A DNA stretch of 64,000 nt from positions 1,826,008 to 1,890,007 of the forward strand of contig OX639992.1 of the NCBI GenBank assembly GCA_951828515.1. Reading direction: 5' to 3'. Both the position numbers and the translations under genes were made by a program. The notes under the pieces were generated by a model. The model saw only the letters and a program-made list of their open reading frames with translations, was not told where the DNA came from and ran no database searches. Source of the DNA: an uncultured Poribacteria bacterium (GTDB lineage: Bacteria; Poribacteria; WGA-4E; WGA-3G). Positions within the stretch are counted from its first letter, which is position 1. Each line of letters opens with the position of its first letter. This document shows, one piece after another, positions 875-59,177 of this stretch.

Positions 875-2107
875 CTAACCAATTTCCGTCATCAACTTCC
901 GAAAAGCGTTGAGTTGCGGGGCAATGATATGGGATGTATCTGTTTTGTTCTCAAGTGCTTCAACGGTTTTGAGTCCGTTGCCTGTGATGGCAAGAACCGT
1001 TGGTTCATCGGGTCGGATGTGCCCGCTCTCTATCAATTTTTTCGTGGCGGCGAGTGTTACACCGCCTGCGGTTTCGGTGAAGATACCTTCTGTGGAAGCA
1101 AGAAGTTTGATCGCATCCACGATTTCAATATCGGTGGCATGTTCGCCGACACCGCCGGAATTTCGGACAGTATCAACAGCATAGATGCCGTCTGCGGGGT
1201 TTCCAATAGCAAGCGATTTAGCGATTGTGTTCGGTCTAACAGGTTTCACAAAATCGCCATTCTCTTTGTATGTATTGACGATGGGTCCACAACCTTCGGC
1301 TTGGGCGACATGTATTTTAGTGTTCGGTTTATCTATTAATCCCAAAATGTGGAATTCCTTTAAAGCTTTGCCAATCTTTGTGATAAGAGAACCACCGGCG
1401 GCAGGTGCGACGATATGTGCGGGTGCCTTCCAACCGAGTTGTTCGATCAGTTCAAAACAGAGAGTTTTCGAGCCTTCAGCGTAGAAAGGGCGGATGTTGA
1501 TATTAACGAATGCCCAGGGATAGACCCCACCGATTTCACTGCAGAGTCGGTTGACCTCGTCATAAGTACCGGTGATACCGACAACTGTAGGACCATAAAC
1601 GAGGGATGCAACGACCTTACCAACTTCGAGATCTGCGGGGATGAAAATGAAGCAATTCAATTTCGCGATAGCAGCGTGTGCGGCTACAGCGTTGGCGAGG
1701 TTGCCAGTGGAGGCACAAGAAACAGTATCAAAATCGAATTCTTTTGCTTTGCTTAAGGCGACTGCTACAACTCGGTCCTTAAAAGAAAAGGTCGGATGGC
1801 AGACGGTATCATCTTTGATATAGAGTTCCTTGACTCCAAGGGCATCTCCGAGATTTTTAGCTCGAATGAGAGGTGTAAATCCGGTGTTCGTGCCATCTGT
1901 TGGTTCACCATCTACCGGCAGGAGATCTGCATAACGCCACATGCTTTGTGGACCGTTTTCTATTGAACACCTTGAAATAGATTTTTGTATCTCCTCATAG
2001 TTATAGTCTACTTCCAGGGGCCCGAAACAGAACTCGCAAACGTGAAGAGGTTCTTTGGGATACTTCTCACCACATTCGCGGCATTTGAGCCCTAATACTT
2101 TTTCCAT
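875..2107 (-). CDS. thrC: threonine synthase with N-terminal zinc-ribbon
   Basis: 410 aa. It has an N-terminal CxxC...CxxC segment, a PLP-lysine motif SFKDR, and the glycine-rich loop of the fold-type II PLP family. The start is preceded by the conserved leader CCGCAAGGAAAATTAAAAT-ATG. Confidence 0.85.
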   Translation of the reverse strand: MEKVLGLKCRECGEKYPKEPLHVCEFCFGPLEVDYNYEEIQKSISRCSIENGPQSMWRYADLLPVDGEPTDGTNTGFTPLIRAKNLGDALGVKELYIKDDTVCHPTFSFKDRVVAVALSKAKEFDFDTVSCASTGNLANAVAAHAAIAKLNCFIFIPADLEVGKVVASLVYGPTVVGITGTYDEVNRLCSEIGGVYPWAFVNINIRPFYAEGSKTLCFELIEQLGWKAPAHIVAPAAGGSLITKIGKALKEFHILGLIDKPNTKIHVAQAEGCGPIVNTYKENGDFVKPVRPNTIAKSLAIGNPADGIYAVDTVRNSGGVGEHATDIEIVDAIKLLASTEGIFTETAGGVTLAATKKLIESGHIRPDEPTVLAITGNGLKTVEALENKTDTSHIIAPQLNAFRKLMTEIG

Positions 2108-43520: not shown

Positions 43521-45422
43521 TTATGTGATGTTTTCAGCAAAACTCTCAGCAGATGGCCATATTGAGCAAAAATAGGAGAATAAGTTTTCCGTGCGCTGAC
43601 TAATTTGCGGTGAATCCCAGATACTATGTTGACAAATTTCCTTATTCATCACCAAAAGGGAATTTTGAAATAAAGATGTTTTCTTCTCAGGAAACGGATC
43701 GTTTGACATACTGGAATTGTGCCTACCTGTGACAAGCGTCAGGTTTCCTATGCTTTGTAGGAAATTACTTCTTAGATTTGCCAATGCAAATGATAGTTTA
43801 TACGATTCATTAATTAACCCATTTTCAGACGGTTCGGTTTCCCATTCTGGGTTATTCGCGCGGTATTCACTCCGAAACAGGTCTTTATAATAAATCCTGT
43901 CTTTGGACTCAAAAACAAGTTTATCATCCCCTTTTATACCCAGTGGTAAAGACCAAGTTCTCTGCCATTTCTCAGGCATTATATGCTCAAGGCTAAGCTT
44001 ATTGTCAAAAACCAACGTACCAGTCTCAAGAAACCGGTTCTCTTCCCGCTTCATTAGTTCAATTCGATACAAAATGTAACGAATGACGTTTTTGTTTACA
44101 CCATAGGGAACAGGTCCTAACGTCAAAAAAGTTTTAACTTCAGAATCAGTCGGCCACTTAGTCGCGTTTGCCGTTTCATCAGATAATAGGCTTATGAAGT
44201 TTCCTAAGTTGAAGTTTCGTCCCTTCAGCCTCCGAATTAAGCGAGAAAAGAATTGGGTATAACTCTGAGTACCTCGTTTGATACACAGCAAACGACGCAT
44301 TGTATAAGACTCCAAAATATGTAGGACTTTGGAAAATTCTGGGCCGGATACCTTCAATTCATTTATTATAAATAGTATAAATGGGTGTACGGTTGCAATA
44401 TCAAATATTTCGTAAAACAACATCGCTCTTCCAATTTCTGAATCGAGGCTACAATTTGTCATTTCTTGATAAACTTCTGAATATCTTTTCAGTTCGGAGA
44501 GCTCATATTCAATTCTATTGTTTACCGCAAGATTTCTCTGATATACATTAAACAGAGGCGTAACATTCTCCGCGCCTAGCTTTGCCATGACAAAGTGTTG
44601 GAAAAAGAGTTCAGATAACGCTATTTTCGTTCGCGCGACCGTTCTTTCTGTTTCCCAATAAGGAGTCTCAAAATGATTCCAATAATCTCTATATAACCTA
44701 TCTCTATCCTCTTCAATCCGAGCCCTCAGAAATAGATTGTTCCTGAGCAAATCAAATTGGAGTAGAGGTTTACCCCTTGCATTGAGCGACTCAAAAATTT
44801 TTTCAGGCTCGTCATTTGAACCAAGCAATATCTGGACGAACCCAAAGTCACGTTGGATAGAACGAAATAGCCTTCGAGTTTTTTGCTCATCACGGTCAAC
44901 ATAATTTTCAATTTTATTCTTGAAATAACCATAGGCTTCGTGCATAGTCTGGGGACCACTATCTGCACTTTTATCAATTAATGAAATGAATGCATCCTTG
45001 TCAAAATCTGTTGGGATAAGTTTGTACTGTTGTTCATCGTTTGAGTCGTAACCTTCATTCCGTAGGTACCGTTCGGTTTGAATCTTAATCTTTTTAAACC
45101 CATACGATTTACAAATATCTCTAAGGGCACAGAGGATGATTTGAAAGGTCGTTAAGCGTTGCTGTCCATCGATAATTTCATACTGTTTTACTTCATCCAC
45201 GTTGCTCGTTTTTTGCTGTATGACGATAGCACCCGTAAAGTGAGGAGAATGCTGCCCTTGGTGTTCATCTGAGAGTTTCTGACGAATTTTCCCCATTATA
45301 TCATCCCATAAAGGTTCCCATTGATCATCCAGAGTCCAGACGTAATGGCGTTGAAAGAGAGGAATTATGAACTGAGTTTCGCCACTAAATAAAGCATCTA
45401 CATCCACACTCGTTGTATCCAT
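43521..45422 (-). CDS. GmrSD-like DUF262/DUF1524 protein (type IV modification-dependent restriction endonuclease family)
   Basis: N-terminal IPLFQRHYVW and IIDGQQRLTT (the DGQQR ParB-like NTPase motif of DUF262). C-terminal LEHIMPEKW His-Me/HNH-like DUF1524 motif. 633 aa with an AAGGAG RBS. Confidence 0.75.
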   Translation of the reverse strand: MDTTSVDVDALFSGETQFIIPLFQRHYVWTLDDQWEPLWDDIMGKIRQKLSDEHQGQHSPHFTGAIVIQQKTSNVDEVKQYEIIDGQQRLTTFQIILCALRDICKSYGFKKIKIQTERYLRNEGYDSNDEQQYKLIPTDFDKDAFISLIDKSADSGPQTMHEAYGYFKNKIENYVDRDEQKTRRLFRSIQRDFGFVQILLGSNDEPEKIFESLNARGKPLLQFDLLRNNLFLRARIEEDRDRLYRDYWNHFETPYWETERTVARTKIALSELFFQHFVMAKLGAENVTPLFNVYQRNLAVNNRIEYELSELKRYSEVYQEMTNCSLDSEIGRAMLFYEIFDIATVHPFILFIINELKVSGPEFSKVLHILESYTMRRLLCIKRGTQSYTQFFSRLIRRLKGRNFNLGNFISLLSDETANATKWPTDSEVKTFLTLGPVPYGVNKNVIRYILYRIELMKREENRFLETGTLVFDNKLSLEHIMPEKWQRTWSLPLGIKGDDKLVFESKDRIYYKDLFRSEYRANNPEWETEPSENGLINESYKLSFALANLRSNFLQSIGNLTLVTGRHNSSMSNDPFPEKKTSLFQNSLLVMNKEICQHSIWDSPQISQRTENLFSYFCSIWPSAESFAENIT

Positions 45423-50481: not shown

Positions 50482-50565
50482 AAGCTCCGCACGCCGCAAT
50501 TCAGATTGACGACAACGCAGACTCCTGCTAAAATTAAGAGAAACCCACAGACACGGAGGGGACGC

Positions 50566-51393
50566 ATGAAACCTCTTAACGACTTCGCTCTCAAACAACG
50601 AAAATATCTGCCGACCTTCACAAAAGCCACCGGAAAACCTACCGTTTACATACCAGGCTACCCGTATGAGGACGAGCACCCTATACCCGCAACCGGATTC
50701 CACGGAGAACAGATCAACATCTTGTATGAACAACTCTCCAGTTATTTCGCAACGCACACCCATATCTATATCGGCGTTGACAACTTCATCTATTACCGTG
50801 AAGGCGATACCACGAAGAGCGTCGCACCCGATATTTATGTCGTCTTAGGCGCAGCAAAATTTCCACTCCGCAGGAGTTTCTACACTTGGGCAGAAGGTGC
50901 GGTGCCAACGGTGCTTTTTGAGTTTTTGTCGGATTCGACAGCCGATGAGGATCGAGAAGAAAAGGTACAGATATATCTACGGGATATAGGGGCACAAGAG
51001 TATTTCATCCATCAACCCGAGATGGAGAAACCTGCAGAGTTTCGCGGGTGGCGGCGGGACCCCTCAGGCGCGATTGTTGAGATGCCCGCGGATGCACAGG
51101 GAGATTTATTTAGCGAGTCCTTAAATTTGTCGTTCCGGTGGACAGATCAACATCATAGCCATGTCCGGTTGTTACGTCCTTATCTGCCGGATGGCACTCC
51201 GATCACGACTGCTATAGAAGAGCGGAACCTTCGCGCAGCAGCGAAACTGCGTGCGGAAGAAGCAGAAGTCCGTGCGGAAGAAGCAGAAGTCCGTGCGGAA
51301 GAAGCAGAAGTCCGTGCGGCAGCAGAAGCGCGCCGACGGCAGGCATTAGAACTTGAGTTGGAACACCTTCGCCGCCGACTCACAGACCGATAA
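50566..51393 (+). CDS. Uma2 family endonuclease (DUF820) with C-terminal heptad tandem repeat (RAEEAEV x3)
   Basis: PDIYVVLG...PTVLFEFLSDST is the Uma2 core. A GGAGG RBS lies 7 nt upstream of the ATG at 50566. The C-terminus is coiled-coil-like and encoded by a 21-bp x3 tandem repeat. Confidence 0.7.
   Translation: MKPLNDFALKQRKYLPTFTKATGKPTVYIPGYPYEDEHPIPATGFHGEQINILYEQLSSYFATHTHIYIGVDNFIYYREGDTTKSVAPDIYVVLGAAKFPLRRSFYTWAEGAVPTVLFEFLSDSTADEDREEKVQIYLRDIGAQEYFIHQPEMEKPAEFRGWRRDPSGAIVEMPADAQGDLFSESLNLSFRWTDQHHSHVRLLRPYLPDGTPITTAIEERNLRAAAKLRAEEAEVRAEEAEVRAEEAEVRAAAEARRRQALELELEHLRRRLTDR
51250..51330 (+). repeat. in-frame 21-bp tandem repeat (CGTGCGGAAGAAGCAGAAGTC x3 + partial) inside Uma2 gene
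   Basis: Encodes RAEEAEV x3. Confidence 0.7.
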
Positions 51394-51711
51394 CAGAGAA
51401 AACACGTCACTGGCCAAGCGATCAACCTCGCCCACTGCTGCGCTTTGACCGATATTCTGTTTTATGCGTCCATCCTAACAAAAACTTTACAGACCCTTTG
51501 AAAATATTTGACATTTAAACGGAAAATGTAGTATGATTGGGCTTTGGTTCCTGTAAAAAGCATGTGCGATTGTTTTTAATGAAAGTAATGACCATGCGGG
51601 TTTTACTTTTTCATTAGCACTCAATTTTTACATGAGCTAATTCGGTATTTTGTTATTTTTGATTATAGATCGGCAAACTACACTATAGACTCAGAATCCA
51701 CAGGAAGCCCT

Positions 51712-52302
51712 ATGACACCTGAAGGGATAGTCGTTGCGGCGGTTGAGCAATATTTTTCGCAGCCCAAATTCCAAAAATTCTCTACAAAACAAGAATATCA
51801 AATTAAGATGGGCTCTGATAAACGCAGAGCAGACGTTGTGCTTATGAATAGCAAAGGCGATCTTGCGGCTATTGCAGAATGCAAGCGTCAGGGGGTAGAG
51901 GGAGATGGAATCGATCAATTGAAGTCTTATCTCAGTGCAACGGACACATCTTTAGGGATATTCGCGAATAGTACGGAACCCGATTCATGGAATTTCTACG
52001 AAAATCTAGGGAGAAACCGATTTAGAGAGATAACGACACATTCTGAGTTTGAAAAACAGGTTGTAAAAGGTGGAGATAACTTTGTAACTCGCGCATTAGA
52101 TTTTTTTAGACAGTTTCTGCGACCTAAACCTGGCAACATCAAGAGTGATGACAGGAAACCTACCGGCATAGAAATAGATGAAGAGTCCGCGGAACCAATT
52201 CCCCCGGTAATATCCCCAAAACGACACATTGACTCTATAATTCCCAAGGACAGACCTTTGCAAAAACGTGAGTTTGATAAAGGAGACGGATTTTATTATT
52301 AA
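51712..52302 (+). CDS. PD-(D/E)xK nuclease-fold protein (type I restriction enzyme R N-terminal domain-like)
   Basis: RADVVLMNSKGDLAAIAECK gives D...E.K spacing typical of HsdR_N/Mrr-like PD-(D/E)xK nucleases; 196 aa with an AGGAAG RBS. Confidence 0.5.
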   Translation: MTPEGIVVAAVEQYFSQPKFQKFSTKQEYQIKMGSDKRRADVVLMNSKGDLAAIAECKRQGVEGDGIDQLKSYLSATDTSLGIFANSTEPDSWNFYENLGRNRFREITTHSEFEKQVVKGGDNFVTRALDFFRQFLRPKPGNIKSDDRKPTGIEIDEESAEPIPPVISPKRHIDSIIPKDRPLQKREFDKGDGFYY

Positions 52303-52958
52303 ACTCACGTTGATTTAGGGATTTGTATATGTACCGCGATCCATCAGCGAAAGGCATGGATGAGGTAAATAATCGACTCAGTGAGGACATAATAACACTA
52401 CGCACAATGGACAGACAACGGAAACAGACAATCGCGTAGCAACAGCAAAACAGAGATGATGGTTGCCGCGATAAAATCATCGGGTACGCAATTATTGGTA
52501 TTATTGGTATTATTTTCGCACTGATAGGTGCCTTGTCGGAAGGGTGTTAAAAAAATAATCCCTGTCCTATCGTCGCAAAACTACAGCCTGCTATCCTGAT
52601 TCCAGCAACAAATGCTGACGAACAAAAAATCCGAGAAACCCGTGGCATCCGCGTCAATCCGCGATTCAGACGGATACCTCTCGCCGTAAAGCAAAATAAT
52701 TACACACCCAGAACTCCACAAACTAACACGTTTATGCTACAAAGAGGCCCTGTGAATTCTAACATTCACTAAAAAAATTGCCTCGTAGAGCAACAGGTCG
52801 GGAATCGGAGTTCCCTCCTACAGACGAACTAATCGCTCTGGGCATTTTCAACGGCTTGTGGAAGGATTATCAAGGGGTACCTGAAGGGTTGATTTAGAAA
52901 AGTATTTTGAAAATGTGATTCCAGTAGAAACGAGTAGCGGAAAAAGATGTTGCAACTT

Positions 52959-53366
52959 TTAGAAGAGTTTTGCTTTTTTATTTCCCCATTTTGGATCAAC
53001 TGAAGGTGCACAAAGACAGTCGCGATTGTGTTCCAAAGCCGCTGCCTCACGGTAATGACCACCATTTTCCAATTCGCGTATTTTCTGATTATAGTGCTCA
53101 AGCACGCGTTGGTATACTTCCTCTGCAGTCAAACCATCAGCAAACGCCCGATCTATTTCAGAATCGCAGTCAAAAAAAGCGTCGGAAATACGCATCAAAA
53201 CGATGAAGTCCTCATTGTATCCAAAGTAGGCAAGGCACCCATGGGTCCCAAAGTCAGGTCCGAGTTTAGCAGCAGTTTGACAAGCAAAAAAATGAACAAC
53301 CTTGCTATCTGATTCCTCAGATTGATAACTCCCTATATCAAAAATAGAGTTGCAATGTTCTCCCAT
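52959..53366 (-). CDS. hypothetical protein
   Basis: 135 aa ORF with no RBS and no recognisable motif. Coding status uncertain. Confidence 0.25.
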   Translation of the reverse strand: MGEHCNSIFDIGSYQSEESDSKVVHFFACQTAAKLGPDFGTHGCLAYFGYNEDFIVLMRISDAFFDCDSEIDRAFADGLTAEEVYQRVLEHYNQKIRELENGGHYREAAALEHNRDCLCAPSVDPKWGNKKAKLF

Positions 53367-53574
53367 ATAGAAGGGACAAGCAGTGAAATGGAACTTGTGT
53401 TGGTTCTCCTTCTACCACTTCTCGTAAAGAAATCCATTGACCATCGGAAGTTATAGCCACTGGACGACTCCAATGGTCTTCGTGAGGCATTGGTGCGTTA
53501 TTCGCCATGAGTGTCTCCTTAAGGAATCAGAACCCAAACTATTTTTTTTAAACTGGTTGATATTTCTAAGTATC

Positions 53575-53694
53575 AGGACTTACGCAAAATTGGCTTTCAT
53601 GCCAAAATTGAGGGGATATTCCCGAAGAGAGCGCAATGAATTGCGCTACTACGAACCAAAGACCGCACGAAAACGGGTCAACTGCGTAAGTCCT
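53575..53694. mobile_element. MITE-like element, second near-identical copy (TIR AGGACTTACGCA)
   Basis: It shares ~95% identity over 120 bp with 29660..29779 and has the same TIRs. Confidence 0.7.
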
Positions 53695-53867
53695 AAAGTA
53701 TTATACGATAAAACGAAATAAAAGTCGAAAATAGGACTGGGTGCCACTATGTGAAAAATTTGACTTTTCGTAGTGTATATGTTATACTTTAAAATGAAAT
53801 TTTTCAGGCAGCTACACTTAAGATAGGGTTGTAGAAGCGGTATTGTGCGTTGTTATCTGGATGAAAA

Positions 53868-54818
53868 ATGAGAATCGCCAAAAATCTGACAGACCTCATC
53901 GGGAATACGCCAACGATCCGCCTGAACGCCTTGCCCAGCAAGGACGATGCGACTATTTTCGCGAAACTGGAAGCCTACAACCCGGGTGGCAGTATCAAGG
54001 ACAGGATTAGTTATGCGATGGTCGTTGATGCCGAAGAACGCGGTATCCTTAGAAAAGGGGATACCATCGTTGAACCTACAGCGGGTAACACAGGCTTAGG
54101 GCTTTCTATCGTCGGTATCGCGAGAGGTTATCCTGTCACTTTGACGATGCCAGAAAACGTCAGTCGTGAGAAATACGAACTCCTTTCCGCCTTCGGTGCG
54201 AAAATTGTGCTAACACCAGAACACGGTGGTATGGCAAGTGCCATTTGGGAGGCAGAAGAGATTGTCAGACGACACTCGCGGCATTATATGCCGAACCAGT
54301 TCACAAACTCTGCGAATCCAGAAATCCACCGGCGCACGACTGCAGTCGAAATTCTTAAAGCAATCGGTAGCGACATCGATTTTTTCGTTACTGGGGTTGG
54401 AACAGGTGGTACATTGACAGGCGTTGGGGAAGTGTTGAAAACAGAATGCCCCGATGTGAAAGTTGTCGCAGTGGAACCGCGGGTTTCAGCCGTGCTTTCC
54501 GGGGGTCCCCCGAATCCGACGCGAATTGATGGTCTCGGTGCGGGAATGATCCCCGAAGTGCTCAATGTAGATGTGATTGATGAAGTCATCACGGTCTCCG
54601 AAGAAAAAGCCTATCAAATGATGAAATCAATTTCAACAAGCGAAGGTTTGTTAGTCGGTATGTCGTCGGGTGCGAATGTGTACGCTGCCTTAGAGGTTGC
54701 AAAAGACCAAGGACCGGATAAAACTGTCGTTACAATTCTCCCCGACACAGGGGAACGTTATTTCAGTTTGAGTCGTTACTTTGAAATCGAATCGGACATC
54801 ATGGAGGCACTCCCTTAA
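53868..54818 (+). CDS. cysM: cysteine synthase (O-acetylserine/O-phosphoserine sulfhydrylase, CysK/CysM family)
   Basis: PLP-lysine motif SIKDRISYAM and glycine loop GVGTGGTLTG. 316 aa. Sits next to cysH, cysO-like and mec-like genes. Confidence 0.85.
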   Translation: MRIAKNLTDLIGNTPTIRLNALPSKDDATIFAKLEAYNPGGSIKDRISYAMVVDAEERGILRKGDTIVEPTAGNTGLGLSIVGIARGYPVTLTMPENVSREKYELLSAFGAKIVLTPEHGGMASAIWEAEEIVRRHSRHYMPNQFTNSANPEIHRRTTAVEILKAIGSDIDFFVTGVGTGGTLTGVGEVLKTECPDVKVVAVEPRVSAVLSGGPPNPTRIDGLGAGMIPEVLNVDVIDEVITVSEEKAYQMMKSISTSEGLLVGMSSGANVYAALEVAKDQGPDKTVVTILPDTGERYFSLSRYFEIESDIMEALP

Positions 54819-54842
54819 AGTGTCCTGTATGGGAAACCAAGT

Positions 54843-55011
54843 GGAGTCTGCCTACTCTATGCTGTGGACGGCAGAGCGGAGTCTGCCTACTACTATGCTG
54901 TGGACGGAAACCGAACGGAGTCTGCCTACTACTATGCTGTGAACGGAAACCGAACGGAGTCTGCCTACTACTATGCTGTGAACGGCAGAACGGAGTCTGC
55001 CTACTACTATG
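54843..55011 (+). repeat. tandem repeat, 5 units of GGAGTCTGCCTACTACTATG(CTGTGGACGG + 6-9 nt); last unit provides the RBS and ATG of cysH
   Basis: Five copies of a ~28-bp core with 6-9-bp variable joints, read directly from the sequence. Confidence 0.7.
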
Positions 55012-55776
55012 AAGCCAATTGACGAAGAATTGACGTATTCAGTAGATCATGCTCTCTGTCAAGAAATTGTCTTGACGGAGGCTCCTCAAGAAATTCTTTT
55101 CTCTCTGTTTAAGCGGTTCAAAGCGCGCGCCGCAATTGTCACAAGCGGGCAACTATCGGGCATGGTACTGCTCCACCTGGCTGCCGAAAACCAATTGCCG
55201 TTTCGGGTCTGTACGCTTGATACACTTCGACTTTTTCCTGAGACCTATACCTTCCTTGAACAGGTGGAATCGCGCTACGGTATCCAGATCGAACAGATTC
55301 AGCCTGACCCACAAGAAGTACAGCAGATGGTGACAGAGCACGGCGAACACCTGTTTTTTGACAGCAAAGCGAAACAGGAATACTGTTGTAACATCCGAAA
55401 AGTTCGTCCGATGCAACGGCTCCTGGAAACGTTGGATGTTTGGATAACGGGTTTACGACACGACCAATCGGATGCGAGACAACAACTCCGAAAGGCAGAA
55501 ATCATATCTTCAACGACACATCCTGTGCTCAAGGTCAGTCCGCTTCTTCAGTGGACAACTGACGAGGTGTGGCAATTTGTTCGTGAAAACGAAATTCCTG
55601 TGAATCCGTTGCTTGAAGCAGATGACCGTGGTCATTATTATGAATCGCTTGGGTGCATCATCTGCACAACATCCATAAAACCCGGAGAACCGAAACGAGC
55701 AGGACGGTGGCGTTGGCAGAACGCCCCCTCTTCAGAAGAAAATACCAAAGAGTGTGGATTACACTACTCGATTTAA
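55009..55776 (+). CDS. cysH: phosphoadenosine/adenosine phosphosulfate reductase (CysH family)
   Basis: PAPS-reductase fold with C-terminal redox motif KECGLH (ECGLH signature). Its start codon lies inside the last unit of a 5x tandem repeat. Confidence 0.8.
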   Translation: MKPIDEELTYSVDHALCQEIVLTEAPQEILFSLFKRFKARAAIVTSGQLSGMVLLHLAAENQLPFRVCTLDTLRLFPETYTFLEQVESRYGIQIEQIQPDPQEVQQMVTEHGEHLFFDSKAKQEYCCNIRKVRPMQRLLETLDVWITGLRHDQSDARQQLRKAEIISSTTHPVLKVSPLLQWTTDEVWQFVRENEIPVNPLLEADDRGHYYESLGCIICTTSIKPGEPKRAGRWRWQNAPSSEENTKECGLHYSI

Positions 55777-55921
55777 TGGCTGTCAGCAAGATGGCTGTCG
55801 GCTGTCAGCCGTCGGAAACCTTTAGTAAAGAGGTTTCCTGATAAAGTAGAGTCTTCTTTCTGACTACTGACCGCTGATGACCGACTGCTAATGGCTAATA
55901 AAAAAGGAGAAAATCTATTTC

Positions 55922-56209
55922 ATGTCTGTAACAGTCCGTATCCCAACCCCGCTGAGACGTTTGACACAAAACTTGGCTGAGGTTGAAGCAGAAGGTGCCA
56001 ATATTGAAGGTATCATCGACAATCTTGAAGTAAACTATCCAGGGATGAAAGAACGTCTCTGTGATGACGGCGGAAATATCCGTCGGTTTGTAAATATCTA
56101 TCTCAACGACGAAGACATCCGCTTCCTCGATGGAAAAGCGACCGCTGTCGAAGATGACGCTGAAATCTCAATTATTCCCGCGATCGCTGGCGGATGCAGT
56201 CTATCTTAA
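55922..56209 (+). CDS. cysO: ThiS/MoaD/CysO-family sulfur carrier protein with C-terminal GG-CSLS extension
   Basis: 95 aa beta-grasp. It ends ...IIPAIAGG followed by 4 extra residues CSLS. AGGAGA RBS. Adjacent to a JAMM protease gene. Confidence 0.7.
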   Translation: MSVTVRIPTPLRRLTQNLAEVEAEGANIEGIIDNLEVNYPGMKERLCDDGGNIRRFVNIYLNDEDIRFLDGKATAVEDDAEISIIPAIAGGCSLS

Positions 56210-56315
56210 TGACTATTGCTTGCCAATGCCAGTAACGGTCAGAGACTCCGATGTATTGGCTGTCAGAGAGATTTTCAGCGTTTCTTTCTGACAGCTGACG
56301 GTTAATTGCTATTCG

Positions 56316-56780
56316 ATGACAACTTTGAAACCAGAAATCCTCAGCGAGATTTGTGACCACGCGAAATTGGAGTTTCCCAATGAATGTTGCGGTATCATTC
56401 TGGGGACTGAAACACAAGTATTTGTTCGGAAATGCCGGAACATACAGAATGAATTGCATCAGGAAGATCCAGACACATATCCGCGCGATGCCCGCACAGC
56501 GTACGTCATACACCCTGACGATTTAATCGCCATTCACAAAGAGTCTGACACACAGCAACGGCAGATTAAGGCGTTCTACCACTCACACCCAAACCACGAG
56601 GCGTACTTCTCCGAAAAAGACAAGGCAGATGCAACCGTATGGGGTGAACCTGCTTATCCGGATGCTACATATTTGGTTATCTCAATTTACGACACCGAAA
56701 TACGCGCGGTGAAGGCTTTCGCATGGGATGAAACAGGGAAAGATTTTATTGAGATCAAGGCACCGTTTGGAGAAACCTAA
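56316..56780 (+). CDS. mec: JAMM/MPN+ metalloprotease (Mec+/QbsD-like, sulfur-carrier C-terminal processing)
   Basis: EFPNECCGIILG (Glu) ... FYHSHPNHEAYFSEKD gives the HxHx7Sx2D JAMM zinc motif; 154 aa. Confidence 0.75.
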   Translation: MTTLKPEILSEICDHAKLEFPNECCGIILGTETQVFVRKCRNIQNELHQEDPDTYPRDARTAYVIHPDDLIAIHKESDTQQRQIKAFYHSHPNHEAYFSEKDKADATVWGEPAYPDATYLVISIYDTEIRAVKAFAWDETGKDFIEIKAPFGET

Positions 56781-56828: not shown

Positions 56829-59177
56829 ATGCAACGCTTGCGAGTCCTTTTGGTGAAGCTTGCGAACCAAAACTTGCGCTACAAATGTCAGCAATTGATG
56901 TCGGACCTGCGCGTTGTCAAAACCTCTGGATTCAGGTCCTACGTTGGACTTCTCACCTTTTCCGCCGCTTCCCTCGCCATTGCCTTAGGAATCACCCTCC
57001 AAAAATACATTGTTTTTGAATACCACTCAAATTCGGGTATCGTCGGCTGGCTCAGTGTTCATGCGTATCCGAAACAGCAGGAATACTTCTTCTATCTGCT
57101 GGCACTGCTTGGTATCCCCACAACAATATATCTGTACTGGCTCGCGTGGTGTGTCTATTCGCGCTGGTGCGCCCAACGAACCGCCCAACCGATACAGCGT
57201 GTGCTGAAAGCAAACGCCTTGGCATCCATTCCGTTGTGGCTTTGCTGGCTACAGGTCTACTCTATCGGTCAGGGTATACTAACAGGCTTATTCGTACCGA
57301 TGAGTCTATCCATTTTGCTAAAATTGGTACTGTTGTATAAGCGGTACTTCCCTACACTGTGGACTCCAGATATTTCTGATGACAGAGACACCCACAACGC
57401 AGCCTGCAACAACGGCGCAGGCGGATTAATAGAAAAGCAGCCTAATCCTGAACCTCACTTTATAACTCCGCAAGGTACAATTAAAAAACGTGGTGGACTT
57501 GAATACCTTATCCTTCCCATTTTCATCTATCTCCTTATCTACTCTGGAAACATCCACGGCAAAATAGATTTATTTCATGAGGGTGAACGCCTCGCACCTC
57601 TCAATGAAATGCTGCACGGCGCGGTGCCGTTTCGGGACATCTATATCCAGCATGGACTCTTCCAAAACGCTTATCTGGCATGGTTGGGTAGCCAATTCTT
57701 TGAACCAACCCTATTCGGTATGCGTTCAATGGAGGACATATTGGACCCACTGGGTTATATCGCTCTCTACGTGCTCGGTTTGCAAGTATTCCGAGGTAGA
57801 TTTTTGACCGCTTTTATCTGTGTGATTATTGCCTCTGGGACAGAGTTTTGGGTAACTGCAAGACACAGCCTGGGCTTAATTAGTTTCGCCTTCGTAGCGA
57901 ATTCCCTTACGCACTTCCAAAAGACTCGCCCGAACCAGGTCCCTACATTTGTATGGAAATTGCTCCTCGCTGGGATCTCCACGAGTTTGGCGTTTTGGTA
58001 TAGCACTGAAATCGGGCTCTACACGCTGGGTGCCATCGGATTATTCCTGGTTATATATGTGTTCCAAGGCGGCTTTGGAACAGAGAATGGAAGAGGGCGA
58101 GGTTGGAAACCTCGCCAGCGGGAGGGAAGGGGAAGAGAATACCTGATCCCCTTAATCAGTTATGGCTGCGGGGTGCTGTTAGGTTTTCTCTCGGTAGGTA
58201 TCTATTTTTTATCGCACGGTGCCTTGGATGATGTAATCTGGAATTCCTATATCCAGTGTCGCTATCAACTCGCAACGTGGGGACTTGCTTTTCCATCTCT
58301 ATCGGAAACACTTGCCCTCTTGTCAACAGAGGGTTGGAACGCTTTCGTTTTCAGCGAAGGATTTCGATGGTACCTGCCCGTTTGCATCTTTTTGATCGTC
58401 GCGGCGTATCTGACATATCGGTGCTTATGTGGAACTGCATCAGAACCCAACGCGATGAAACTACTGCTGTTATTGCTCGGTGGCATTGCATTCTTCCGAA
58501 CTGCATTGGGACGTTCAGATGGTGGACATCTGATTTACGGCGCAACCTTTTTATGGCTGCTCTGTCTATTCCCATTAGAGAGAGGCATTTCCAAAATGTT
58601 CCGTGCGTGTCTATCGTTTTTAAGAGGGAACGGACGTTGGCAGTCCGCATTGAAGGCAGTGTGGGTGCTAATTCCGATGGCAATATTCTGTTGGTATGTA
58701 GGGCAAGCGCATCAGCCGTTGGCAGGTTTCCGAGAGAAATGGCAAAGATTGCGTCAGAACCCGTTCAAACAACGCGTTGTAACGCAGGAATTAGTGCGCG
58801 CAGGAAAGGTGGACATCCCAGACGATCAAGTTCAACAGGTTCAAAAGGTGGTCGCTTATATCCAAGAAAATACAGCACAGAACGAAAAGATTTTCGATTT
58901 TACGAGCCAGGGTGCCTACTACTTCTTCGCAGACCGACTGAGCGTTACCCGATTCCATCAAGTCTCGTACGCATCAACACCTGAGATGCAGCAAGAAGTT
59001 ATCTCAGCCCTTGAAAAGGACAAAACGCGTTTAGTGATCTTTAAAACCGGAGGTTGGTTCGATGCTGTTGACGATATTCCTGTCGAGGAGCGGCACCCCC
59101 TGATCGCGGAATACCTGCAGGCGAACTATGAACTCGCGGTGAACATTAACGAAACGGAGATTTTGCTTCGGAGATAA
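56829..59177 (+). CDS. large polytopic membrane protein, unknown function (contains an in-frame REP-element insertion)
   Basis: 782 aa with many TM helices and a GAGG RBS. Residues ENGRGRGWKPRQREGRGRE are encoded by a REP-like hairpin at 58096..58121. Confidence 0.5.
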   Translation: MQRLRVLLVKLANQNLRYKCQQLMSDLRVVKTSGFRSYVGLLTFSAASLAIALGITLQKYIVFEYHSNSGIVGWLSVHAYPKQQEYFFYLLALLGIPTTIYLYWLAWCVYSRWCAQRTAQPIQRVLKANALASIPLWLCWLQVYSIGQGILTGLFVPMSLSILLKLVLLYKRYFPTLWTPDISDDRDTHNAACNNGAGGLIEKQPNPEPHFITPQGTIKKRGGLEYLILPIFIYLLIYSGNIHGKIDLFHEGERLAPLNEMLHGAVPFRDIYIQHGLFQNAYLAWLGSQFFEPTLFGMRSMEDILDPLGYIALYVLGLQVFRGRFLTAFICVIIASGTEFWVTARHSLGLISFAFVANSLTHFQKTRPNQVPTFVWKLLLAGISTSLAFWYSTEIGLYTLGAIGLFLVIYVFQGGFGTENGRGRGWKPRQREGRGREYLIPLISYGCGVLLGFLSVGIYFLSHGALDDVIWNSYIQCRYQLATWGLAFPSLSETLALLSTEGWNAFVFSEGFRWYLPVCIFLIVAAYLTYRCLCGTASEPNAMKLLLLLLGGIAFFRTALGRSDGGHLIYGATFLWLLCLFPLERGISKMFRACLSFLRGNGRWQSALKAVWVLIPMAIFCWYVGQAHQPLAGFREKWQRLRQNPFKQRVVTQELVRAGKVDIPDDQVQQVQKVVAYIQENTAQNEKIFDFTSQGAYYFFADRLSVTRFHQVSYASTPEMQQEVISALEKDKTRLVIFKTGGWFDAVDDIPVEERHPLIAEYLQANYELAVNINETEILLRR
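58096..58121. repeat. REP-like hairpin GGCGAGGTTGGAAACCTCGCCAGCGG located inside a CDS
   Basis: Same family; inserted in-frame within the 56829..59177 membrane protein gene. Confidence 0.6.

Follow-up and report, generated by a model that had tools for sequence, protein, structure and literature searches.

The window analysed here, a 64,000-nucleotide stretch of contig OX639992.1 (assembly GCA_951828515.1) from an uncultured bacterium of the phylum Poribacteria, carries a cluster of four co-directional open reading frames (ORFs) at positions 53868-56780, all on the + strand (Table 1). They encode a cysteine synthase of the CysK type, an adenosine 5'-phosphosulfate (APS) reductase (CysH), a small sulfur carrier of the ThiS/MoaD family, and a metalloprotease of the JAMM family. 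A preliminary description of the locus, made from the sequence letters and a list of ORFs, had compared the cluster with the CysO-dependent cysteine biosynthesis operons of actinobacteria and had pointed to four residues, CSLS, that follow the Gly-Gly pair (GG) at which carriers of this kind are activated.

The conservation of the cluster was followed in a scan of one genome per species, which gave 80 carrier loci and to which six strain loci were added; ORFs were called on all of these loci and were then searched with the proteins of the window. Loci L001-L035 make up the poribacterial set, while 51 carrier loci lie outside the phylum. The order cysK-cysH-carrier-JAMM is held across the 35 poribacterial loci with three exceptions, namely L008 and L017, in which the contig ends before cysK, and L033, which is without the JAMM gene. 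This synteny persists at carrier identities as low as 72%, and the arrangement of the cluster in Poribacteria is not due to chance.

Table 1. Features of the window named in the text, with the genes of the cluster first (aa, amino acids; values after Pfam and family names are E-values).
Feature	Position	Strand	Remarks
cysK-type synthase	53868-54818	+	316 aa; Pfam PALP 2.9e-71
CysH APS reductase	55009-55776	+	255 aa; PAPS_reduct 4.7e-43
CysO/MetO-type ThiS/MoaD carrier	55922-56209	+	95 aa; Pfam ThiS 1.3e-14
Cap codons Cys-Ser-Leu-Ser after Gly90-Gly91	56195-56206	+	putative propeptide, predicted to be removed by the JAMM protease
JAMM/MPN+ metalloprotease	56316-56780	+	154 aa; Prok-JAB 4.9e-20
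ThrC-like, MetM-clade pyridoxal phosphate (PLP) enzyme	875-2107	-	410 aa; N-terminal zinc ribbon
Sigma-70-like promoter candidate	53760-53788	+	TTGACT-17-TATACT, upstream TG; about 80 bp before cysK
39-nt tandem repeat, 4.8 copies	54832-55011		fills the cysK-cysH spacer
Multi-pass membrane protein	56829-59177	+	782 aa; no Pfam/NCBIfam match

The capped carrier and its protease

Among proteins of solved structure, the carrier is most similar to CysO of Mycobacterium tuberculosis (3dwg_C; 1e-22, 51% identity), and CysO of A. orientalis (4n6e_B) is matched at 2.9e-19. Its gene has an AAGGAG ribosome-binding site upstream. The protein ends in ...IPAIAGG-CSLS, with G90-G91 encoded at 56189-56194 and the stop codons TAA and TGA in tandem behind the tail; residues 89-91, AGG, line up with the AGG at the C-terminus of CysO. 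Since CSLS comes after the Gly-Gly pair, a free GG end needs processing.

The capped end is real, as the preliminary description had read it. The exact 95-residue carrier occurs on 19 contigs that stem from several samples, technologies and independent assemblies and include long-read megabase contigs, which excludes the sequencing error in the stop codon that had been named as a possible source of the tail. Orthologues from many species have xxLS tails related to this one, and their codons likewise end in CTx TCx TAA. The notion that the tail is an artefact, produced by faulty sequencing or assembly at the stop or by a wrongly called ORF end, has nothing found in its favour and, against this recurrence, the shared ending and the two tandem stops, its probability is negligible; it can be regarded as refuted.

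The variation of the tail was surveyed in the 120 closest carrier clusters. Identity over the 91-residue core is at least 77% throughout, while the tails differ in both length and sequence. No tail is present in 27 of these clusters; the others end in xxLS (RNLS being the commonest), in LF, FF or IL, in a 7-residue SSDDERD-like stretch or in other short forms, and the first residue after GG in the orthologues can be R, S, I, K, L, F, T, H, N or Y. Two tail-less alleles (L024 and L029) stop exactly after GG and retain, beyond that stop, a remnant of the old tail (...TCC TAA). Because the core is conserved, the tails are variable and the loss has come about by a stop after GG, the cap appears to behave as an unconstrained, dispensable propeptide. 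The specific comparison of the preliminary description, with the GG-CF end of QbsE, fails on the same data: the Cys at the first position after GG is not conserved among the poribacterial orthologues, hence the resemblance between CF and CSLS is coincidental, and the QbsE-like GG-Cys reading was rejected. The idea that the tail might plug CysK, as the C-terminus of CysE does, was likewise set aside, the tail being too variable and sometimes absent.

The broader precedent invoked for the carrier, the trimming of a capped end by a JAMM protease, is well established. It is known for QbsE (GG-CF) and QbsD, CxnE (GG-decapeptide) and CxnF, and PtmS2 (GG-MV) and PtmS1, systems in which the removal of the cap must precede adenylation (PMC5925218, PMC6006322), and, according to the GapMind 2026 preprint (10.1101/2024.10.14.618325), a Mec-type JAMM is needed to mature the terminus of the MetO carrier. 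The poribacterial system resembles the Qbs, Cxn and Ptm systems in that its carrier continues past GG and is encoded next to a JAMM gene, but those feed siderophore or antibiotic biosynthesis, whereas the poribacterial cluster sits with primary sulfur-assimilation genes. In the window, the catalytic motif of the protease, E...H(S/T)Hx7SxxD, is intact, with NECCG and HSHPNHEAYFSEKD (HSHx7SxxD) both present, and so it is in 34 of 34 poribacterial orthologues. Of the 35 poribacterial loci, 34 have the JAMM gene next to that of the carrier; all tailed poribacterial carriers (31/31) have a JAMM nearby, and the sole locus without one, L033, is tail-less. Gene context backs the predicted cleavage after the GG of the carrier, which would serve both the removal of the cap and the hydrolysis of adducts.

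Carrier and JAMM genes overlap in the SSDDERD clade, where the tail codons and the JAMM start codon share sequence (GATGATG...). The JAMM start of L027-L032 lies inside the tail codons in another frame, the tail counting seven residues (five in L031, SSDDK), a position that implies translational coupling of carrier and protease.

Capped ends are normal in the carrier family at large. A GG motif can be recognised in 128 of 150 representatives taken at 50% identity. The chain stops at GG in 34 of the 128 and runs on for 1-9 residues in 49, and 45 have longer extensions or fusions, such as a NIL domain, a rhodanese, an E1 activating enzyme, a cysteine synthase or tandem carriers. With only 34 of 128 carriers ending at GG, the cap is the rule in this family and not the exception. 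Among the fusions after GG, a NIL domain was recorded for the group L042, L052 (Pfam NIL 1.2e-13), L063, L076 and L077, and carriers of other phyla are also fused to a MetM-like enzyme (L045), a tandem second carrier or a cysteine synthase; P0242, P0260 and P0348 are listed with these six loci as further examples. In all such fusions, a free GG end would need proteolysis.

Enzymes of the cluster and partners encoded elsewhere

CysH carries the iron-sulfur ligand motifs CC and GCxxCT and the catalytic ECGLH motif at its C-terminus, all of them intact in 35 of 35 poribacterial orthologues. Its best match among solved structures is the APS reductase of P. aeruginosa (2goy, 5.3e-41), with which the motifs align, against 2.7e-12 for the PAPS (3'-phosphoadenosine 5'-phosphosulfate) reductase of E. 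coli (1sur). In NCBIfam, it passes NF002537 (220 bits, cutoff 154) and remains below the cutoff of TIGR02055, APS_reductase (198 bits, cutoff 235). By these motifs and by its greater closeness to APS than to PAPS reductases, CysH belongs to the assimilatory APS reductases of the iron-sulfur type.

The synthase had been described at first as a CysM, an assignment that has to be replaced. It passes the NCBIfam cysK equivalog TIGR01139 (398 bits, cutoff 351) and falls short of the cysM equivalog (268 bits, cutoff 394), while CysM of M. tuberculosis, whose reference sequence was confirmed to be identical to 3dwg_A, passes the cysKM subfamily model only. The two enzymes are 34% identical, and M. 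tuberculosis CysM is not among the best 60 solved matches to the synthase; M. tuberculosis CysK1 (2q3b) is matched at 301 bits, and solved CysKs reach 333 bits. On sequence grounds, the synthase is thus of the CysK type (the lineage of O-acetylserine sulfhydrylase A) and not of the M. tuberculosis CysM type.

The PLP-lysine and phosphate-loop motifs, SIKDR and GVGTGGT, are kept in the synthase, and TAGNTG, PNQF and PTRIDG stand in place of the CysK motifs TSGNTG, PQQF and GPHK(I/L)QG. All 120 poribacterial homologues share the three replacements, which occur neither in solved CysKs nor in CysKs linked to carriers in other phyla. The motif at the TSGNTG position we take to be the carboxylate-binding Asn loop, and the HK pair presumably helps to bind serine acetyltransferase. 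A homologue search with the synthase returned only poribacterial orthologues. Poribacterial CysKs also end in an acidic C-terminal extension of about 10 residues, which neither solved CysKs nor the carrier-linked ones of other phyla possess.

The absence of a MoeZ/MoeB-like activator from the window, already remarked upon in the preliminary description, was confirmed. The search used a ThiF profile made from 17 E1s linked to carrier clusters, the MoeB-seeded ones having been confirmed with Pfam ThiF, and an E. coli MoeB sequence; it found no ThiF-type E1 in the six-frame translation of the 64-kb window (best E 0.64). Pfam annotation of the other large ORFs of the window gave no E1, sulfite reductase, ATP sulfurylase or CysE, and the flank past the left edge of the window contains neither an E1 nor a carrier. 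In the literature on Poribacteria, nothing relevant was found on sulfur, the molybdenum cofactor, ThiF or MoeB.

A second PLP enzyme of interest is the ThrC-like protein encoded 52 kb from the only carrier gene of the window. The MetM/MetO/Mec/MoeZ homocysteine pathway of Streptomyces albulus, reported by Hasebe et al. in 2024, is summarised in 10.1101/2024.10.14.618325 and PMC12172450; in it, MetM/MetO makes homocysteine from O-phosphohomoserine. The likeness to this system is judged from such descriptions and from carrier-adjacent homologues. NCBIfam names the ThrC-like protein thrC (threonine synthase); nevertheless, it matches the carrier-adjacent genes of other phyla at 505-581 bits, three partial or fused ones excepted, against 157-181 bits for solved bacterial threonine synthases, and it shares 62% identity with its counterpart beside the carrier in Ca. 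Brocadia. A ThrC-like zinc-ribbon PLP gene stands directly upstream of the carrier, or is fused to it, in 35 of the 51 non-poribacterial loci; as to the rest, it is one gene off in six, not judgeable in four and lacking in six, which makes 41 of 47 evaluable loci with a MetM-like gene beside or near the carrier. The nearest non-poribacterial relatives of the poribacterial carrier sit directly downstream of such MetM-like genes and are 64-68% identical to it, compared with 51% for M. tuberculosis CysO. In the 35 poribacterial loci, on the other hand, the carrier lies between cysH and the JAMM gene and never adjoins a MetM-like gene (0/35), and the MetM-like gene of the window is itself carrier-less. 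By analogy, the MetM-like enzyme is a possible second client of the carrier.

Cysteine synthases accompany the carrier in other phyla too, in two arrangements. A CysM-like synthase is beside the carrier at nine loci, and the JAMM gene directly follows the synthase in all nine; outside Poribacteria, the JAMM always holds this position directly after a cysteine synthase (9/9 loci). The second arrangement, with a CysK-type synthase beside the carrier, is seen at ten loci, and at eight of them the cluster includes a ThiF-type E1. In Poribacteria, a CysK-type synthase and a JAMM occur together, without a nearby E1.

Proposed pathway and its alternatives

The likeness of the cluster to the actinobacterial CysO-type operon proposed in the preliminary description holds in part. 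The cluster is conserved and has a CysO-like carrier and an intact JAMM, but it has no CysM, and cysH does not belong to the corresponding cluster of M. tuberculosis. With the cysteine pathway of M. tuberculosis (CysO/CysM/Mec+/MoeZR, Rv1334-1336 and Rv3206c; PMC3227635), it shares the carrier, the adjoining JAMM and a clustered PLP cysteine synthase. The mycobacterial carrier, however, ends at GG, the synthase there is a CysM, and the mec-cysO-cysM cluster differs in gene order and does not include cysH. Linkage to PAPS reductase is a separate neighbourhood type in the catalogue of Iyer, Burroughs and Aravind (2006; PMC1779556): its classes 4c and 4d combine ThiS/MoaD and JAB proteins with a cysteine synthase, and row 4e combines them with a PAPS reductase and further sulfate-assimilation genes. 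The poribacterial cluster is like class 4d in its cysteine synthase and lack of an E1, but has no ClpS; it is like class 4e in its PAPS/APS reductase, but has no E1, SirA or sulfite reductase nearby. A further relative is the HcyS-Ala/HcyD/HcyF/MetY system of Wolinella succinogenes, reportedly described by Krishnamoorthy and Begley in 2011, whose carrier is said to be capped after GG and whose JAMM is said to trim the cap and to free the amino acid from its adduct; the genes reportedly cluster with sulfate assimilation, include an E1 and lead to homocysteine via an O-acetylhomoserine sulfhydrylase. By this account, the system shares with the poribacterial one the capped carrier, the JAMM and the clustering with sulfate-assimilation genes, and differs in its homocysteine product and in the E1 of its cluster, where Poribacteria have a CysK-type synthase and no E1.

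The cluster is probably best explained by a carrier that is matured by the JAMM protease and activated by an unlinked E1, and that delivers thiocarboxylate sulfur to the CysK-type synthase, possibly also to the MetM-like enzyme, the product being released by the JAMM; this is the reading that we favour, with fair but not high confidence. We infer a pathway of five steps. APS reductase would yield sulfite, which enzymes encoded elsewhere would reduce to sulfide. The carrier would be made with its short, sequence-unconstrained CSLS cap, and the adjoining JAMM would trim it and bare the Gly-Gly end. An unlinked E1 of the ThiF/MoeZ type would then adenylate the terminal Gly of the carrier and convert it into the thiocarboxylate. 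The sulfur would be passed on to a PLP enzyme, either the adjoining CysK-type synthase, giving cysteine, or, as a plausible alternative or second client, the MetM-like ThrC homologue, giving homocysteine. Finally, the same JAMM would hydrolyse the adduct of carrier and amino acid, so that the product is freed and the carrier recycled.

Several observations weigh against this pathway. By profile search, none of the 35 poribacterial loci has an E1 within 10 kb, and no E1 of poribacterial origin is among the best 120 matches of a profile search of a 5.8-billion-protein set; these matches are all MoeB-like, and the labelled ones are Mariprofundus-type (Zetaproteobacteria), Deltaproteobacteria or Thermodesulfobacteriota. 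A separate location of the E1 is, however, normal in systems of this kind: in M. tuberculosis, the E1, MoeZR, is also unlinked to the CysO, CysM and Mec+ genes (PMC3227635). The pairing of the JAMM with a CysK-type synthase is a second difficulty: in other phyla, the JAMM pairs only with CysM-like synthases, none of the ten loci with a CysK-type synthase beside the carrier has one, and in all ten (10/10) the carrier is tailed with no JAMM in the fetched flanks. A linked JAMM is for this reason not a general need of capped carriers, and a strict rule that a tail requires a linked JAMM was rejected. The protease of the window is, moreover, distant from the CysM-linked JAMMs (32-61 bits) and about 25% identical to what is presumably the sequence of M. 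tuberculosis Mec+. The synthase raises a third difficulty. Arg220 of CysM aligns with the Asp of PTRIDGLG in both BLASTP and MAFFT alignments, although a shift of the loop by two residues would give Arg; Lys occupies the position in eight of the nine CysM-like enzymes beside JAMMs in other phyla. Agren and colleagues are said to have credited Arg220, in 2008, with the specificity of CysM for O-phosphoserine. The synthase thus appears to lack a counterpart of the Arg220 found in CysM, the one carrier-dependent cysteine synthase that has been characterised, and we know of no precedent for a CysK-type enzyme that uses a protein thiocarboxylate.

The main rival is an explanation that is possible, though rather unlikely, in which the genes are co-regulated but mechanistically separate: CysK would use free sulfide from the reactions downstream of CysH, and the carrier and the JAMM would be a relocated MetO/Mec pair serving only the MetM-like enzyme. 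A synthase that passes the cysK equivalog and resembles sulfide-using CysKs fits this explanation, as do the MetM-adjacent position of the nearest non-poribacterial carriers, the lack of a JAMM at the CysK-type loci of other phyla, and a window in which the MetM-like gene stands without a carrier and 64 kb contain a single one. It has to contend, however, with 35 genomes in which the carrier is always found with cysH and, on contigs long enough to include it, with cysK, but never with the MetM-like gene, and with a JAMM that is elsewhere tied by position to a cysteine synthase and not to MetM. The altered substrate- and partner-binding motifs, fixed in all 120 poribacterial homologues, argue further against a plain housekeeping CysK.

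Sulfur delivery by the JAMM-matured carrier could also be conceived in a more specific form, as a rewired MetO/CysO system in which one JAMM-gated carrier feeds both a remodelled synthase of the CysK lineage and the unlinked MetM-like homocysteine synthase. The remodelling would consist of Ser to Ala in the Asn loop, HK to TR, Gln to Asp and the acidic C-terminal extension, and the remodelled entrance would take a protein thiocarboxylate instead of free sulfide or the tail of CysE. Taken as a whole, this version is doubtful. If true, it would be the first CysK-type cysteine synthase dependent on a protein thiocarboxylate and would make the carrier a shared sulfur hub for cysteine and methionine.

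Lower still stands the view that carrier and JAMM form a ubiquitin-like conjugation and deconjugation pair, similar to SAMP/TtuB, or feed a thio-cofactor route (molybdopterin, thiamine or tRNA thiolation), with the linkage to cysK and cysH reflecting nothing but shared sulfur regulation. The best NCBIfam matches do point that way, SAMP1 for the carrier (55.9 bits) and desampylase for the protease (62.8 bits), but both scores are under their cutoffs, 60 and 130 bits, respectively. Regulatory roles have been proposed for pairs of JAB and ubiquitin-like proteins (PMC1779556), and have been shown for SAMP1/HvJAMM1 (PMC4443979). Nonetheless, the match of the carrier to CysO (1e-22) compares with 7.9e-05 at best for the SAMP1 homologue of M. 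acetivorans and with 0.007-0.02 for H. volcanii SAMP1; no gene for an E2, MoaE, ThiG or a tRNA thiolase is nearby; and the family as a whole is linked to MetM-like, cysteine synthase, E1 and sulfate-assimilation genes. This makes the view very improbable.

The system is a fresh example of known biochemistry and not a new mechanism, given that its neighbourhood types were catalogued in 2006 (PMC1779556) and that the biochemistry of its relatives is established. The finding overturns nothing and opens no long-standing question. It would extend sulfur amino-acid biosynthesis by protein thiocarboxylates, known from actinobacteria, to an uncultivated phylum of sponge symbionts, with two modestly interesting twists in the divergent CysK and the relocated MetO-like carrier. 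One question that these raise is whether an enzyme of the CysK type can draw on the thiocarboxylate of a carrier; the other is whether cysteine and homocysteine synthesis can be served by a single carrier. Annotation labels such as "cysteine synthase A," "threonine synthase" and "MoaD/ThiS family protein" would hide the pathway.

Spacers and flanking genes

The promoter candidate upstream of cysK is a 10/12 match and joint best in its region, and shuffled sequence gives as many matches overall; what speaks for the candidate is its position. An Rfam scan of the window found no family and, on that account, no riboswitch before cysK. The last copy of the 39-nt repeat provides the ATG start codon of cysH. 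Among near-identical strains, the array counts five copies in the window and L003, three in L002, two in L004-L007 and one in L001, and its predicted RNA structure is not above that of shuffles (z = -0.83).

Short repeats of the GGCTGTCAG type flank the carrier gene in its spacers (55778-55808 and 56258-56266); three of the four copies in the window lie in these carrier-side spacers, against 0.3 expected. Related strings, ggctgtcggctgtcag and gttatcag, occur past the carrier stop in L009-L021, and in the database homologue P0014 the carrier reads through into such a repeat. The multi-pass membrane protein starts 49 bp past the JAMM gene and is in the same place in most poribacterial loci. On the other side of the cluster, the stretch from the RraA-like gene to cysK (50506-53721) is, by comparison with L001-L006, an insertion site whose content varies between strains. 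Uma2 and HSDR_N-like genes are present there in the window and L003, and T5orf172/MUG113 and other genes in L005; in L001, L002, L004 and L006 the site is empty. A GmrSD-type restriction gene is located at 43521-45422.

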